Source of the DNA: a virus
DNA: 5,681 nt
Direction: 5' to 3' (one strand)
Virus record (IMG/VR): IMGVR_UViG_3300045988_002123
Coordinates: 1 to 5,681 of that record
The position numbers and the translations under genes were made by a program. The notes beneath the pieces are model-generated. The model ran no database searches. It was not told where the DNA came from and saw only the letters and a program-made list of their open reading frames with translations. Positions 1 to 5,681 of this stretch are shown here, piece by piece (the stretch's first letter is position 1; every line of letters begins with the position of its first letter).

Positions 1-55
1 AATTGCACAACGTGAGGACTGGACAACAAGAATTGAAATGGAAGCAAGAGGATAT
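1..55. repeat. Terminal redundancy, copy 1 (identical to 5627-5681): circular-contig overlap, not a biological repeat
   Basis: Read directly: aattgcacaacgtgaggactggacaacaagaattgaaatggaagcaagaggatat occurs at 1-55 and again at 5627-5681 with 55/55 identity. Confidence 0.97.
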
Positions 56-844
56 CCAAAAGATCAAGTATGGTTTGTTACACTAACATACGATGATGAC
101 CACGTACCGGGCATGATAGTAAAAACGGGTGAAATCCTCAGAAAAGTACAATACACATGGAAACCGGGCACAGAGCGTCCAGAGAGCGTGCAAATCTTAC
201 TCTATACAGATATCCAAAAATTTATAAAAAGGCTCAGAAAGGCCACAGGAGACGGGCTAAGATACTTTTGTGCGGGTGAATACGGAGAAAAAACAGCAAG
301 ACCACACTACCACATGATTTTGTACGGTTGGAAACCAACAGACCTTGAACCAATCTACAAAAAAAGATGTAACGGTTACTTTACAAGTAAAACAATGGCA
401 GACCTATGGGGAATGGGTCAAATTCAGATAGCACAAGCAGTGCCAGAAACCTATAGATATGTTGCAGGGTATGTTACAAAAAAAATGTATGAAATTGACG
501 GGAAAAAAGCGAATTCTTATTATGATCTAGGCCAACCGAAACCATTTGCAAAAATGTCACTCAAACCGGGCATCGGAGATCAGTGGTACAAAGAGCACAA
601 AGAAGAAATCTGGAAACAAGGCTATATTCAATGCGCAAACGGAAAAAGAGCAAGAATACCACGATTTTACGAAAAGCAAATGGAAGCAGAAGACCCAATG
701 AGACTGTGGCAGATTAAAAAAGAAAGACAAGCAAAGATCATAGCAGCCAACCGCTACACATACCAAAACAAAGACTATGCAGAAGATTTAAAAACAAAAG
801 AAAGAATAACCAAAAAGAAAATGCACGCATCCGGAAAGCTGTAA
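2..844 (+). CDS. VP4: Replication initiator protein VP4 (HUH rolling-circle endonuclease), C-terminal 280 codons; the 5' part lies at 5448-5626 across the circular junction
   Basis: The frame is open from base 2 (IAQREDWTTRIE precedes the ATG at 38). HUH motif 1 is FVTLTYDD (74-97). Motif 2 is PHYHMILYG (HYH at 305-313). Motif 3 has two catalytic-type tyrosines, YVAGYVTKK (458-484), close to phiX174 gpA YVAKYVNKK as I recall it. The stop is TAA at 842-844. The ATG at 38 used by the ORF track is an internal Met (residue 73 of a 340-aa protein). Confidence 0.93.
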   Translation: MAQREDWTTRIEMEARGYPKDQVWFVTLTYDDDHVPGMIVKTGEILRKVQYTWKPGTERPESVQILLYTDIQKFIKRLRKATGDGLRYFCAGEYGEKTARPHYHMILYGWKPTDLEPIYKKRCNGYFTSKTMADLWGMGQIQIAQAVPETYRYVAGYVTKKMYEIDGKKANSYYDLGQPKPFAKMSLKPGIGDQWYKEHKEEIWKQGYIQCANGKRARIPRFYEKQMEAEDPMRLWQIKKERQAKIIAANRYTYQNKDYAEDLKTKERITKKKMHASGKL

Positions 845-855
845 GCGGTGTCACC

Positions 856-900
856 TAGCCAAGTACCTATCAAGTAAGGTACTTGGCTATATTATTTTAT
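856..900 (+). terminator. Perfect 13-bp stem / 8-nt loop hairpin followed by a T-rich tail: candidate rho-independent terminator of the Rep-distal end of the transcription unit (alternatively origin-related)
   Basis: tagccaagtacct (856-868) pairs perfectly with aggtacttggcta (877-889). The loop is atcaagta. The tail tattattttat (890-900) follows. The hairpin starts 12 nt after the Rep stop. Confidence 0.6.
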
Positions 901-902
901 CA

Positions 903-945
903 GCACGCGCACGCACGCGCGTAGACGCACGCGCACGCACGTGTA
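903..945. repeat. Twin alternating purine-pyrimidine (CG/CA)n tracts: Z-DNA-prone, CpG-dense, containing a 15-nt direct repeat
   Basis: Positions 903-923 and 925-945 are each 21 nt of strict R-Y alternation, separated by one out-of-phase base (g924). gcacgcgcacgcacg occurs at 903-917 and 927-941 (15/15). There are 11 CpG in 43 nt. AT-rich DNA flanks both sides (890-900 and 945-960). Confidence 0.85.
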
Positions 946-986
946 ATTATTATTATTTATTTGTTGTAGCCGTAGTAGTAGAGTAC

Positions 987-1150
987 GTGGAAAAGTTGAA
1001 AACAGATAATTTTGAACGTTAGAACGTTAGAAAACAGCAAAAACAAATGTTGAGAGATTTGTTGAAAAAATGTTGAAACGTTGAATCACTCTGTTATGCT
1101 AAAGTTTAACAATGTGGAAATGTTGAAAACTCTGTGGAAAATGTTGAAAG
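987..1150. repeat. Iteron-like array: GTTGAAA-family heptamers, three composite GTGGAAA(A)(T)GTTGAAA units, tandem GAACGTTA x2, three AACGTT palindromes
   Basis: GTTGAAA occurs at 995, 1061, 1072, 1122 and 1143. Variants are GTTGAGA at 1049 and GTTGAAT at 1080. Composite units lie at 987-1001, 1114-1128 and 1134-1149. gaacgtta is tandem at 1014-1021 and 1022-1029. AACGTT occurs at 1015, 1023 and 1077. tgtggaaaa (1133-1141) is the reverse complement of TTTTCCACA and fits the relaxed DnaA box TTWTNCACA. tgtggaaat (1113-1121) is one mismatch off. Confidence 0.8.
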
Positions 1151-1329: not shown

Positions 1330-1358
1330 TTGACAATCAGGAGTCCTTATAATATAAT
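1330..1358 (+). promoter_or_regulatory. Consensus sigma70-type promoter: TTGACA - 17 nt - TATAAT
   Basis: TTGACA is at 1330-1335 and TATAAT at 1353-1358, with an exact 17-nt spacer. It lies just upstream of the first gene of the co-oriented block (SD AAGGAG 1365-1370, ATG 1380). Caveat: the predicted start site near 1364-1367 would put the SD at the extreme 5' end of the mRNA. Confidence 0.6.
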
Positions 1359-1379: not shown

Positions 1380-1772
1380 ATGGAAATTAAAGCATATGTA
1401 GTAGAAACAGAAGGAAACAAAAACATTGCAGACCACTTCAAAGTAAAAGAATTTGCATGCAAAGACGGGACGCCAATTGTATTCGTTGACGAATATTTAG
1501 CAGTCATTCTAGAAATCGCAAGAAAAACAATCAAAAAACCAATCATAATCACAAGCGGATACCGCACAGTAAGCCACAACGCGAAAGTGAACGGAGCAAA
1601 ATACAGTTACCATACAAGAGGTATGGCAGCGGACATAAAAGCAGACGGCATAAAGCCGAAAGAACTTGCAAAAGTACTAGACAAAATAGCACCAAACAGC
1701 TGTGGTATCATCGTATACAACAATTGGGTGCATTTTGATACACGAAACACAAAATACAGAAAGGGGGTGTAA
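1380..1772 (+). CDS. Zinc D-Ala-D-Ala carboxypeptidase-like peptidase, family M15 (Peptidase_M15_3 / VanY-like fold): putative endolysin
   Basis: The 130-aa product carries the family signature SGYRTVSHNAKVNGAKYSYHTRGMAADI ... WVHFDTR. The inferred Zn ligands are H78 (1611-1613), D85 (1632-1634) and H118 (1731-1733), an H-x6-D...H arrangement. HFKVKEFACKDG is typical of the N-terminal part of the family. SD AAGGAG lies 9 nt upstream of the ATG. Confidence 0.85.
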   Translation: MEIKAYVVETEGNKNIADHFKVKEFACKDGTPIVFVDEYLAVILEIARKTIKKPIIITSGYRTVSHNAKVNGAKYSYHTRGMAADIKADGIKPKELAKVLDKIAPNSCGIIVYNNWVHFDTRNTKYRKGV

Positions 1773-2468: not shown

Positions 2469-2877
2469 AGTATACAGCAGATACAACCTGCCACCGAAAG
2501 AAGCAAGCACAGCAGGAGAACGAACACGAGACACATACAAGTGGACAATGAACGAAAAAGGAGAAAAAAAACTAATTCACGATGTAGACATAGACCGACA
2601 AGCAGAAATTCAGTCATATGCCGAAGAATGTGACATTAAAAACATCGTCGCACGAGCAGCATTTGATCCGAATTTTGCACAAGCACTAGCAAGTGGAGCA
2701 ATGGACGGAAGCAACGCAGATATCACAGACTATCCGGAAAACATCCACGAACTTAAAAAGATGGCAGAAAAAGCAGGCAAAACCATTGAAGAAATCACGG
2801 AAGAGCTGAATAAACCGAAGCAGCCGGAACAGCCGGAACAGAAGAAAGAAGAGGTGAAGCAGAATGAACCGGAATAA
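2461..2877 (+). CDS. VP3: Internal scaffolding protein VP3
   Basis: The 138-aa acidic protein sits immediately upstream of VP1 and overlaps it. YAEECDIKNIVARAAF resembles the conserved (E/D)ECDINxIV core of gokushovirus VP3. The ATG overlaps the previous stop (ATGAGTAA). SD GGAAGG is at 2447-2452. Confidence 0.75.
   Translation: MSKVYSRYNLPPKEASTAGERTRDTYKWTMNEKGEKKLIHDVDIDRQAEIQSYAEECDIKNIVARAAFDPNFAQALASGAMDGSNADITDYPENIHELKKMAEKAGKTIEEITEELNKPKQPEQPEQKKEEVKQNEPE
2821..2838 (+). repeat. Tandem 9-nt repeat cagccggaa x2 (+cag) encoding QPEQPEQ in the VP3 C-terminal tail
   Basis: Read directly: cagccggaa at 2821-2829 and 2830-2838. Confidence 0.9.
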
Positions 2878-4609
2878 CGAAGCGCATTTTAACAGGATTC
2901 CACAGACACACATCAGCCGATCAAGATTCAAGCGAGATCAGAATGTGAAATTCACGTTTGACGCTGGCAAGTTGATTCCATTTTATGTGGATGAAGTGCT
3001 GCCGGGTGACACTTTCAGTGTAGACACGGCAGGCCTTGTGCGTATGACCACACCGATCTTCCCGGTGATGGACAATGCGTACCTAGACGTATATTACTTC
3101 TTTGTACCAAACCGCATTGTGTGGGAACACTGGAAAGAGTTCATGGGTGAAAACACAACCGGAGCATGGGAACAAAAAACAGAATACAGCGTACCGCAAC
3201 AGTATCTAGCAGGATATACCATGAAAAGTGGAACTGAAATAGAAGCGTCACCAATCGGAACAGTACCAGAAGAAGGAACCATACTTGACTATATGGGCAT
3301 CCCAACCAAATGCAACCGAGTAGCCGCAATTACACCTGAGCAAGCAGAAAAAGACATCAGTGTAAACGCACTACCAATCAGAGGATACGTAAAGATCTGG
3401 AACGAATGGTTCAGAGACCAAAACCTAACGGACCCAGTAAAAGAATTAAAAGACGATAAACCAGCGGTATATGTAAGGCTGGACGAAAGCCACGAATGGA
3501 CAGACACACAGCTAAACTTAAACGCAGCAACGGGCGGAAAGCCGCTGCCTGTCGCAAAATATCACGACTACTTTACAAGTGCACTGCCGACACCACAAAA
3601 GGGGCCAAGCGTAGCTATCGGAATCACCGGAGATGCAAGAGTACAATGGGCATTTACAGTAGAAGAGCTGCAGAGCTATGGAATCATGACCAGCAACGGC
3701 GAATCGCACCTTGTACCGGCAAACGGAAACACTTTAGGAGCGCCGACAAGGGCCGACACAAACGGATACCCGCGCGTGTTACTGGGAAAAGATTCAGGCG
3801 GCACGAGTACATGGGTACCGATGCAGGCACGTCTTGACAATGTAGAAGCAGCGACAGTAAACCAACTGCGAGAAGCGTTTGCAGTGCAGCACTACTACGA
3901 AGCACTCGCAAGAGGCGGCAGCAGATACCGCGAAATTATTCGCAGTGTCTTTGGCACGACCATCTCAGACAAAACGGTACAAATCCCGGAATATCTGGGG
4001 GGCGGTCGCTATCCTATCAACATGTCTCAGGTCGTACAGACGAGCAGCACAACGGCAGACAGTCCGCAGGGCAACACGGCTGCGATCAGTGTAACACCGT
4101 TCAGTGAAAGCAGCTTTACAAAATCCTTCGAAGAACACGGTTTTATCATCGGTGTATGCTGTGTGAGACACGATCACACATACCAGCAGGGTATCGAAAG
4201 AATGTGGAGCAGACAGGACGCACTAGATTACTATTATCCGCAGTTTGCAAACCTGGGCGAGCAGGCCGTAAAAGTCAAAGAAATCTACACGGGAAAAGAA
4301 CTCACAAAAGAAAACACAGAAGAGGTATTTGGCTATCAAGAAGCATGGAGCGAATACAGAATGAAACCTAACCGTGTGGCGGGCAAATTCCGGTCAAACG
4401 CAACAGGCACATTAGACACATGGCACTATGCTGACAACTACGACAAAAGGCCGTATCTGTCAGACGAATGGATTAAGGAAGGGAAGCAAGAAATTCAGCG
4501 TACTCTTGCAGTACAGGACGAACCGCAATTTATTGCAGATTTCCTGATTCAAAACAATACAACCAGACCGATGCCGCTTTACAGCGTGCCAGGTCTCGAA
4601 AAACTGTAA
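2864..4609 (+). CDS. VP1: Major capsid protein VP1 (Microviridae F-type jelly-roll capsid)
   Basis: The 581-aa product has the characteristic gokushovirus VP1 opening HFNRIPQTHISRSRFKRDQNVKFTFDAGKLIPFYVDEVLPGDTF. Size and position are typical. SD GAGGTGA (2851-2857) lies 6 nt upstream. The gene overlaps the VP3 end by 14 nt. Confidence 0.95.
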   Translation: MNRNNEAHFNRIPQTHISRSRFKRDQNVKFTFDAGKLIPFYVDEVLPGDTFSVDTAGLVRMTTPIFPVMDNAYLDVYYFFVPNRIVWEHWKEFMGENTTGAWEQKTEYSVPQQYLAGYTMKSGTEIEASPIGTVPEEGTILDYMGIPTKCNRVAAITPEQAEKDISVNALPIRGYVKIWNEWFRDQNLTDPVKELKDDKPAVYVRLDESHEWTDTQLNLNAATGGKPLPVAKYHDYFTSALPTPQKGPSVAIGITGDARVQWAFTVEELQSYGIMTSNGESHLVPANGNTLGAPTRADTNGYPRVLLGKDSGGTSTWVPMQARLDNVEAATVNQLREAFAVQHYYEALARGGSRYREIIRSVFGTTISDKTVQIPEYLGGGRYPINMSQVVQTSSTTADSPQGNTAAISVTPFSESSFTKSFEEHGFIIGVCCVRHDHTYQQGIERMWSRQDALDYYYPQFANLGEQAVKVKEIYTGKELTKENTEEVFGYQEAWSEYRMKPNRVAGKFRSNATGTLDTWHYADNYDKRPYLSDEWIKEGKQEIQRTLAVQDEPQFIADFLIQNNTTRPMPLYSVPGLEKL

Positions 4610-4648: not shown

Positions 4649-5443
4649 ATGGCATTTTCACTGTTATCAGCAATACCAATGATCACAGGCGGTATCAACG
4701 CAGTAAGCGGGCTTGTATCAAGTGGTGCACAACTGGCAAATGCGTTTAAAGGCATGTCAGGCGGCGGGACAAGCTGGAATCAAAGCGGAAACGTCAGCCA
4801 TGGAGAAAGCGCAAGCACAGGTGCAAGCGGCGTAGACTACAACGCAGCACAAGCAATGAACGCCAATCTATGGAATCAAGCACTTGCAGGACAAAGCGCA
4901 CAAGCAACACAGAACGCAAAAAACAGCATCTATGCGATGGGCTTAAACACCTTAGGAGCAATTACACAGGGCGTATATAACAAAATCTCACAAGATACAG
5001 CCATGAACTACAATTCAGCAGAAGCGCAAAAAGCTAGAGACTGGTCAGAAAAAATGAGCAACACGGCCTATCAAAGAGCCGTAAAAGACATGAGAGCAGC
5101 AGGAATCAACCCGATTCTTGCGTATACACAGGGTGGAGCAAGCACACCAAGCAGCGCACAAGGAACAGCAAGCGCACAGAGTATCAGTGCGCCAAGTGTA
5201 GGGACACAATCAAGCGGAATGCCGACACCGCAGCAACCGTTGCCGGGGTGGAGCAAAACAGAAAGCTGGTCAAAAACAGATTCAAGCGGATACAGCACAG
5301 GGGGCAGCACGCAAAGCTATGGGTCAAAATGGATAGACATACCAAACGGAGAACTTAAAAACTGGTTAAGCGAAGATAAACCATCAGCCTTTAAAGCAGG
5401 CGGCGGAAGAACGCAAGGCGGCGGTGGCGGAAGAGGAAGGTGA
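4649..5443 (+). CDS. VP2: Minor capsid / DNA pilot protein VP2
   Basis: The 264-aa product has a hydrophobic N-terminus (MAFSLLSAIPMITGGINAVSGLV). Its conserved core DWSEKMSNTAYQRAVKDMRAAGINPILAY (5039-5125) matches the (MSNTA-x-QR...AG-L/I-NPIL) signature of gokushovirus VP2. The remainder is S/G/Q-rich low complexity with a GGGRTQGGGGGRGR tail. It is positioned directly after VP1. Confidence 0.88.
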   Translation: MAFSLLSAIPMITGGINAVSGLVSSGAQLANAFKGMSGGGTSWNQSGNVSHGESASTGASGVDYNAAQAMNANLWNQALAGQSAQATQNAKNSIYAMGLNTLGAITQGVYNKISQDTAMNYNSAEAQKARDWSEKMSNTAYQRAVKDMRAAGINPILAYTQGGASTPSSAQGTASAQSISAPSVGTQSSGMPTPQQPLPGWSKTESWSKTDSSGYSTGGSTQSYGSKWIDIPNGELKNWLSEDKPSAFKAGGGRTQGGGGGRGR

Positions 5444-5447
5444 AAAA

Positions 5448-5681
5448 ATGGGATGCAGTAGGCCGTTAATCCGGTTCTATTCTCCTGAAAACAAAGAAGT
5501 CAGCGGCAGGGTTTACACCCTGTCGCGTTTTTGTAAGGAGAGAGCACACAAAAATCTTAAATATGAAGATTTGATGTACAGAACGGATGTAATGTTAATA
5601 CCATGTGGACAGTGTATAGGATGTAGAATTGCACAACGTGAGGACTGGACAACAAGAATTGAAATGGAAGCAAGAGGATAT
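5448..5681 (+). CDS. VP4: Replication initiator protein VP4, N-terminal 78 codons (continues at base 56 of the window after removing the terminal redundancy; full protein 340 aa)
   Basis: The ATG at 5448 has SD GAGGAAGG (5433-5440) upstream. The translation is MGCSRPLIRFYSPENKEVSGRVYTLSRFCKERAHKNLKYEDLMYRTDVMLIPCGQCIGCRIAQREDWTTRIEMEARGY. The IPCGxCIGCR cysteine cluster is a conserved N-terminal element of gokushovirus VP4. It is in frame with 38-844 across the 5,626-nt circle. Confidence 0.9.
   Translation, partial: MGCSRPLIRFYSPENKEVSGRVYTLSRFCKERAHKNLKYEDLMYRTDVMLIPCGQCIGCRIAQREDWTTRIEMEARGY
5627..5681. repeat. Terminal redundancy, copy 2 (identical to 1-55)
   Basis: 55/55 identity with bases 1-55, read directly. 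Confidence 0.97.

Follow-up and report, generated by a model that had tools for sequence, protein, structure and literature searches.

We describe here an element in the genome of a single-stranded DNA phage, IMG/VR virus record IMGVR_UViG_3300045988_002123 (the window, 5,681 nt), that has the architecture of a bacterial chromosomal replication origin (oriC). The window is a gokushovirus genome, and the element is a module of about 210 nt (943-1150) in the intergenic region between the gene for the replication protein Rep (VP4) and a peptidase M15 gene; it is made up of an A+T tract, a series of TAG repeats, a 4-nt gap, two tandem DnaA boxes and about eight further co-oriented boxes. The same signature occurs between dnaA and dnaN in bacterial chromosomes, and the module is conserved among related phages. 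Judging from these sequence features, it is very probably a DnaA-binding origin mimic, and we think it likely that it acts as an oriC-type module for DnaA assembly and DNA unwinding in the gokushovirus. In the literature searched we found nothing connecting gokushoviruses or Microviridae with DnaA boxes, nor relevant oriC-like sites in phages, and a full chromosomal-type origin with boxes and trios appears to be undescribed in a single-stranded DNA virus.

Layout of the module and the basal unwinding system of oriC

The basal unwinding system (BUS) of bacterial oriC consists of two tandem DnaA boxes, a gap of about 4 bp (4 bp on average in chromosomes) and DnaA-trios, which are single-strand binding sites with the consensus 3'-GAT-5', equivalent to 5'-TAG-3' (PMC8287927). 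The published search rules call for a first box with no more than 2 mismatches to TTATCCACA, a second box with no more than 4 in the same orientation and at most 3 bp away, a distance of about 4 bp, and 16 bp at most, from the proximal box to the first trio, and at least three consecutive NAN units (PMC8287927). The window agrees with all of these rules. Its + strand reads, in order, the A+T tract, the trios TAGTAGTAG, AGTA and cGTGGAAA-AGTTGAAAA (986-1002). The box adjacent to the trios (986-994) has 2 mismatches to TTATCCACA, while the second (994-1002) has 3 and follows with the 8-nt period of the Bacillus subtilis and Staphylococcus aureus entries. The gap is 4 nt, and three trios are consecutive (TAG TAG TAG at 973-981, the published minimum), with a fourth TAG at 967-969, before CCG. 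The relation between the strands is also that of the chromosomal system: boxes read TGTGGATAA-wise on the 5'-TAG-3' strand and lie 3' of the trios, as TAGTAGTAG AGTA cGTGGAAAA in the window and as (TAG)n-GGCC-TGTGGATT-TGTGGATAA on the trio strand of the B. subtilis BUS (Table S1, PMC8287927, written 3'->5' as AATAGGTGT...CCGG GATGAT). Ruminococcus albus is listed in the BUS table with tandem AAAAGTTGT (= TGTTGAAAA) boxes (PMC8287927).

On the trio strand the A+T tract precedes the trios on their 5' side. Chromosomal origins have the same arrangement, with a mean A+T content of 70% over the 60 nt before the trios. In the window the tract is 94% A+T but only 18 nt long, and it is bordered by a tract of 72% G+C; an A+T-rich stretch occupies this position in all relatives in our alignment. 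The closest described system is the BUS at incC of B. subtilis (boxes #6/#7 plus trios; Richardson 2016, 2019; Pelliciari 2021, PMC8287927), which the module resembles in the order of its parts, strand relation, gap and 8-nt period, in boxes that read TGTGGAxxx on the trio strand, and in having additional boxes beyond the proximal pair. It differs in lying in a 5.6-kb single-stranded DNA phage and not beside dnaA, in having GAAA-type boxes with mostly T at the fourth base, in the short A+T tract, and in lacking a second (incA/B-like) box cluster. Since the module is located away from dnaA and dnaN, between rep and the peptidase M15 gene of a microvirus, it is an oriC-like element and not a chromosomal oriC.

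A first-pass annotation, made from the sequence, had described 987-1150 as an array of iteron-like repeats containing DnaA-box-like motifs, and the repeats that it listed are present. GTTGARW occurs seven times on the + strand (995, 1049, 1061, 1072, 1080, 1122 and 1143), with one further copy only in the whole window when both strands are counted; the composite GTGGAAA(A)(T)GTTGAAA is present at 987-1001, 1114-1128 and 1134-1149, and ATGTTGA at 1047, 1070, 1120 and 1141. Tandem GAACGTTA is found at 1014 and 1022, and AACGTT at 1015, 1023 and 1077. The reverse complement of 1133-1141 is TTTTCCACA, which fits TTWTNCACA, and that of 1113-1121 is ATTTCCACA. The spacing of ATGTTGA, which had been read as roughly whole helical turns, is incidental; the distances that matter are the 4 nt between trios and box 1 and the 8-nt period at which the two proximal boxes repeat. 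The array is far above chance in dinucleotide-preserving shuffles: all 8 copies of GTKGAAA in the genome, both strands counted, are on the + strand within 987-1149, whereas 5000 shuffles of 940-1160 gave a mean of 0.37 copies and a maximum of 4, and none (0/5000) reached 8. The repeat unit is an 8/9-mer, TGT(T/G)GAAA(N), in which G and T at position 4 replace each other at the same site between relatives; across 770 sites this position is T in 81%, G in 19% and C in 0%. The feature begins upstream of the array as first described, at about 943, and the A+T tract and TAG-repeat block that the first description lacked are defining parts of the element.

The same signature in bacterial chromosomes

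We used the phage sequence to define a pattern, TAGTAGTAG-N4-6-GTKGAAA-N1-3-GTKGAAA, and scanned one genome per bacterial species (596 Gb), in which about 0.6 chance matches are estimated. The pattern matches at least 120 bacterial contigs, and the statements about chromosomal loci that follow hold among the matches listed. These come from Oscillospiraceae, Ruminococcus, other Clostridia, Selenomonas, cyanobacteria, Streptomyces, Acidobacteriota and Deinococcus. By tblastn, dnaA and/or dnaN adjoin 112 of 120 loci; the match lies between the two genes in every locus that has both (77/77), and the boxes face dnaA in 79 of 82. For two of the loci, L190 (CAKSDC010000015.1) and L203 (JAITEB010000017.1), DnaA and DnaN were confirmed by Pfam. 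This placement identifies the phage signature as the canonical dnaA-dnaN origin signature, and the box orientation in the chromosomal loci and in published Table S1 (PMC8287927) agrees with that in the phage. No microvirus proteins were found in any of the 120 chromosomal loci, and we therefore rejected integration into host origins. Assembly chimeras with host DNA were rejected as well, because more than 100 independent circular genomes, sampled from different host animals in several studies, carry the module at a constant position.

The DnaA-box-like motifs of the first-pass annotation were thus correctly recognized, and in their variants and layout the boxes are those of the chromosomal oriC of Clostridia. 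The GTTG variant makes up most of the boxes in the origins of gut Oscillospiraceae and Ruminococcus (11/13 in L190, 9/12 in L203 and 8/10 in a third locus, L200), while Acidobacteria origins have no GTTG boxes. Measured from the trios, the boxes of L190 and L203 are offset by 14, 23, 87, 98, 106 and 145-168, and those of the window by 14, 22, 88, 99, (107) and 141-170, the four boxes of its middle cluster lying at about 76, 88, 99 and 107. Chromosomal origins also have a spacer of comparable length at the position of 1003-1047. With L190, a profile built from the phage modules can be aligned along nearly its entire length (nhmmer, E = 1.3e-16). The dnaA-dnaN spacer origins of Oscillospiraceae and Ruminococcus therefore share with the module TGTTGAAA-dominated boxes at near-equal offsets, whereas the sequences between boxes are unrelated, and the chromosomes have some reverse-oriented boxes and longer A+T regions.

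Because the box variant (TGTTGAAA/TGTGGAAA) and the box positions mirror the origins of Oscillospiraceae and Ruminococcus, these gut Clostridia are the probable hosts of the phage, as far as origin similarity indicates. The Shine-Dalgarno sites of the window and its TTGACA-17-TATAAT promoter fit a Firmicutes-like host. Pointing as they do to Oscillospiraceae/Ruminococcus, the box variant and layout offer a sequence-based handle on host range.

A further difference from the Oscillospiraceae origins is the phage's own AACTTGTTG (ATTTGTTG in the window), a near-invariant sequence at 957-966, directly 5' of the trios, that is absent from chromosomal origins. It resembles CAACTTG, which occurs in the phiX174 origin, and could be a site of Rep action on DnaA-opened DNA. 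AACTTG/TTG at about 958-966 in relatives is a candidate for the Rep nick site.

Conservation, inversion and proposed function of the module

Conservation is higher in the intergenic region than in the genes: its 535 nt, used as a query, match 72 phage records, while whole-genome megablast gives patches only. GenBank has 38 gut gokushoviruses with the module (940-1155), sampled from human, pig, monkey, dog, mink and raccoon, and none of these records annotates it. Among 80 IMG/VR relatives with 73-100% Rep identity nearly all have the module, as do more than 100 IMG/VR gut gokushoviruses. The last repeat is precisely where homology to most relatives breaks off (1149/1150). We aligned 89 non-identical modules; the trios and boxes are the most conserved columns, and the sequence between boxes varies. 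A near-invariant block, (A)ACTTGTTGTAG-NN-GTAGTAGTAG, stands 5' of the first repeat pair with the A+T tract before it, GTAG-NN-GTAGTAGTAG being its near-invariant core in the 89 modules. Among 83 parsed modules the gap between trios and box is 4 nt in 80, with variable sequence, and the first box is TGTGGAAA in 38 and AGTGGAAA in 25; TGTGGAAA followed by A, as in aligned relatives, corresponds to TTTTCCACA, with 1 mismatch to TTATCCACA. GTGGAAA, the variant closest to consensus, occupies this trio-proximal position in 70 of the 83. Some relatives have more trios (L117 and L032, the latter expanded by whole triplets), and some, such as L053, have one or two extra box copies at 9-nt spacing.

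The boxes of a module share one orientation (a mean of 8.7 on one strand and 0.07 on the other), and in about 90% of relatives it is the coding (+) strand that carries the trios. In six relatives (L024, L037, L040, L052, L076 and L080) the whole unit of A+T tract, trios and boxes is inverted at the same place, between the Rep hairpin and the downstream promoter (2270-2475 in L040, for example). A module that tolerates inversion most simply acts on double-stranded DNA as an autonomous element, which argues against a signal in the packaged single strand and against repeats placed relative to the Rep nick site. We also note that at least two GenBank records with VP4 annotated on the + strand (MG945388.1 and MG945447.1) match the module in minus orientation.

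In the mechanism that we propose, the incoming single strand would be converted to the double-stranded replicative form (RF), on which host DnaA-ATP would fill the boxes. The trio-proximal boxes (986-1002) would then seed a DnaA oligomer that spreads onto the TAG trios of the + strand, stretching and opening the adjoining A+T tract (943-960), and the host helicase-loading and priming machinery would be brought to the opened DNA. The outcome would be a host-driven, Rep-independent start of replication on the RF, for amplification or for plasmid-like maintenance; alternatively, DnaA might melt the DNA for the Rep protein. That the module serves helicase loading and RF replication is a suggestion from sequence to which we give slightly less than even weight. 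Somewhat more tentative is the wider proposal that a large clade of mammalian-gut gokushoviruses carries a working copy of the host oriC, which would make the RF a mini-chromosome fired by DnaA, independently of Rep, and either amplified or maintained, synchronously with the host cell cycle, in a plasmid-like carrier state.

The main alternative is that the module is a DnaA sink, in which some ten boxes on the high-copy RF titrate DnaA without being used for initiation, as a means of host takeover; host chromosome initiation would be blocked or DnaA-regulated genes derepressed. It draws on the same DnaA-box evidence, and orientation independence fits it equally well. There is also a precedent in the plasmid incompatibility produced by DnaA-box regions of B. 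subtilis, whose incA, incB and incC are said, after work by Moriya in 1988, to be named for the incompatibility caused by these regions when cloned on plasmids; this 1988 work is cited in PMC6669920. However, a sink needs boxes only, whereas conservation in the module extends equally to the trios, the exact 4-nt gap and the A+T tract, which points to the single-strand binding and unwinding mode of DnaA; we regard a sink as rather unlikely.

We find it improbable that the module is a complementary-strand origin on the packaged single-stranded DNA, where DnaA bound to single-stranded trios and folded boxes would nucleate a primosome, as in R6K; a DnaA-dependent primosome loading site was among the roles that the first-pass annotation had proposed. 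The trios do lie on the + strand, presumably the packaged strand, in most relatives, and DnaA binds its trios as single strands (PMC8287927). In two relatives, L091 and L176, the last box is followed on its 3' side by a perfect DnaA box in reverse orientation, TTTTCCACA; this extra box, which the window lacks, could base-pair with the TGTGGAAAA before it and so create a box hairpin. Against this, the boxes of the window and of most relatives are co-oriented, so that no box lies in a hairpin stem; predicted hairpins are weak and confined to the spacers, and the six inverted modules would place the complement on the + strand. The R6K ssiA site (the 'A site' of the ABC primosome) likewise recruits DnaA to a replicon with a single-stranded stage, but it is a hairpin with a box in its stem, while the phage module has no box-containing stem and tolerates inversion.

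The same annotation had considered binding sites for Rep. Direct repeats that follow rep closely in the intergenic region, at a distance of about 100 nt from the strongly conserved hairpin at 856-889, could in principle be iterons through which VP4 finds or opens its nick site, in the manner of the pMV158 bind locus or the iterons of geminiviruses and circoviruses. The same 8-mer array with its trios is nevertheless present in at least 120 bacterial chromosomes, lying between dnaA and dnaN wherever both genes were found, and no microvirus gene accompanies it there. Moreover, the repeat is unchanged across viruses whose Rep ranges from 73 to 100% identity, with no co-variation with Rep, and its orientation relative to rep and to the hairpin is not fixed, as the six inverted loci show. 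Iterons for Rep are thus very unlikely.

Equally remote are the annotation's further suggestion of operator sites for the downstream promoter and the idea of an operator or promoter array for another regulator (Spo0A-type 0A boxes, TGTCGAA, or stacked -35-like TTGAAA). The unit does look like the 0A box, which phi29 employs, and TTGAAA resembles a -35 hexamer, with a weak TTGAAA-16-TATGCT at 1073-1100, but C, which the 0A box requires at position 4, is absent from all 770 sites, the -10 of the weak promoter falls in the least conserved part of the module, the real promoter (TTGACA-17-TATAAT, 1330-1358) is 180 nt past an array that occurs in either orientation, and the trios and the chromosomal dnaA-dnaN counterpart would be left unexplained. 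Spo0A boxes and a sigma-70 promoter within the array (the weak match scores 9/12) were rejected on these grounds.

Other replicons that borrow DnaA are built differently. Plasmids and phage-plasmids (P1 oriR, F, pSC101, R6K and RK2) are likewise mobile replicons that recruit the host DnaA through boxes at the origin; their origins are built on iterons for the plasmid Rep with one to a few accessory DnaA boxes and no known trio block, whereas the phage module has a wholly chromosomal-type layout in a rolling-circle single-stranded DNA virus. The phiX174 origin and primosome assembly site are also replication signals in the intergenic regions of a microvirus, but consist of a 30-nt recognition and nick site for gpA and a hairpin recognized by PriA, with no known DnaA boxes, trios or repeats.

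Several points weigh against an oriC-type function of the module. DnaA binding and unwinding are deduced from sequence, and the host is suggested by origin similarity alone; the scan lists at least 120 contigs, and the nearest host origin may lie outside the matches listed. Since the sequences between boxes are dissimilar in phage and chromosome, capture from a host and convergence are inseparable. Most boxes are weak with respect to the Escherichia coli consensus, with 2-3 mismatches. The trio series of the window, with exactly three consecutive NAN units, is at the published minimum. Its A+T tract is short and bounded by G+C-rich DNA, and the 27-mer of B. subtilis is longer. Bacillus-type origins are bipartite, and incC alone is not known to give autonomous replication in B. 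subtilis. Replication of the phiX174 type needs only the Rep protein, host helicase and Pol III, and we know of no microvirus that needs DnaA.

If the oriC-type reading is true, the module would be the first origin of this type, with DnaA-trios, in a single-stranded DNA virus. Replication in microviruses is the standard example of an economy of means, a Rep nickase and a few host enzymes, to which it would add a second mechanism of replication or host control dependent on the host initiator. In the mammalian gut few phages are as abundant and persistent as gokushoviruses, whose hosts, origins and lifestyle are largely uncharacterized; a DnaA-fired RF could explain their long-term persistence without an integrase, and would make persistence without lysogeny genes testable. 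A compact natural origin module of about 200 bp would also be of use in studies of DnaA-trios and in vectors for gut Clostridia that are hard to manipulate.

In viral contigs, the pattern of trios and boxes is found in more than 120 sequences, almost all of microvirus size. Some larger contigs, such as L325, L319, L332 and L375, carry it as well, which suggests that the strategy may extend beyond microviruses to other mobile elements of the same hosts. The 39-kb contig L325 (IMGVR_UViG_3300045988_134603) has 11 co-oriented GTTG-type boxes at 1737-2070. A search of L319, L325 and L332 found no dnaA, dnaN or microvirus genes in these three contigs.

Genome context and other features of the intergenic region

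An exact 55-nt terminal redundancy (1-55 = 5627-5681) indicates that the window is a complete circular genome of 5626 nt, circularly permuted. All of its genes are on the + strand, and the peptidase M15 gene is followed by an ORF5-like gene, a scaffold protein gene and two large open reading frames (ORFs). The module lies between the terminator-like hairpin of rep and the next promoter, a stretch across which no transcription is predicted. The coordinates of its parts and of the surrounding features are as follows.

Features of the module and its surroundings in the window
Feature	Position	Strand	Description
A+T tract	943-960		GTAATTATTATTATTTAT; 94% A+T, 18 nt; candidate DNA unwinding element
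DnaA-trio block	961-981	+	TTG TTG TAG CCG TAG TAG TAG; three box-proximal units equal the consensus 5'-TAG-3'
Gap	982-985		AGTA, 4 nt, between trios and first box
DnaA box 1	986-994	-	TTTTCCACG; 2 mismatches to TTATCCACA
DnaA box 2	994-1002	-	TTTTCAACT; 3 mismatches to TTATCCACA; tandem with box 1, 8-nt period
Spacer	1003-1047		tandem GAACGTTA and small ACG..CGT palindrome; variable sequence; weak hairpin potential
Middle cluster, four co-oriented boxes	1048-1056, 1060-1068, 1071-1079, 1079-1087	-	+ strand letters in order: TGTTGAGAG, TGTTGAAAA, TGTTGAAAC, CGTTGAATC
Spacer	1088-1112		variable, low conservation; two versions among relatives
Distal cluster, four co-oriented boxes	1113-1121, 1121-1129, 1133-1141, 1142-1150	-	in order: ATTTCCACA, TTTTCAACA, TTTTCCACA, CTTTCAACA
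Rep/VP4 gene	5448..5626 then 1..844	+	spans the circle junction
Hairpin	856-889		13-bp stem and T-rich tail; start of intergenic region, terminator-like, directly after rep stop codon
G+C-rich tract	901-942		72% G+C, mostly alternating purine-pyrimidine, GCACGCGCACGCACG x3; abuts A+T tract
Intergenic region			535 nt, between rep (VP4) and peptidase M15 gene
Promoter	1330-1358		perfect TTGACA-17-TATAAT; drives peptidase M15 gene; end of intergenic region
Peptidase M15 gene	1380-1772	+	probable endolysin
Large ORFs	2864-4609 and 4649-5443	+	probably VP1 and VP2, by position

The hairpin at 856-889, with its flanks (850-900), is 95-100% conserved in about 100 relatives; its loop, CTATCAAGTAAG, is invariant, and compensatory changes are seen in its stem (A-T to C-G; GCC/GGC variants). 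Read on the minus strand, the loop is TTACTTGATAGG and has ACTTGATA in common with the phiX174 gpA cleavage site, CAACTTG/ATA. The hairpin may be more than a terminator, namely a candidate Rep recognition or nick hairpin.

CGCGCA/TGCGCG tracts like that at 901-942 also occur in relatives, and CG-rich alternating tracts are present on both sides of inverted modules. They may be inversion breakpoints, or a clamp or Z-DNA-prone element beside the unwinding region.

Within the module, the ACG..CGT palindrome of the spacer 1003-1047 (AACGTTAGAACGTTAG in the window) is retained across relatives and might be the site of a second factor. A general hairpin in this spacer was rejected, with a mean of -3.6 kcal/mol in relatives and a strong stem only in L117 and L004, where there is a perfect 12-bp hairpin with a compensatory GC-to-AT change. 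A XerCD/dif-like site at 1077-1104, for which enterogokushoviruses provide a precedent, was rejected, since one arm matches 9/11 and the other not at all. Two small ORFs (1081-1212, 43 aa, and 1134-1271, 45 aa) were rejected because homology to most relatives stops within them at 1149/1150 and indels are not in triplets. At a permissive threshold there was no Rfam match in the whole window.

Downstream of the module, the G+C-rich segment 1150-1262 is kept in only some relatives (L001-L006, L093, L167, L118 and L072); it holds a long imperfect inverted repeat (1194-1207 with 1238-1249) and could be a single-strand origin or an RNA element. A second inverted repeat (1288-1303 and 1310-1325, 16-nt arms, 81% complementary) stands directly upstream of the promoter, and homology to 1295-1336 is also found in L050 and L080.

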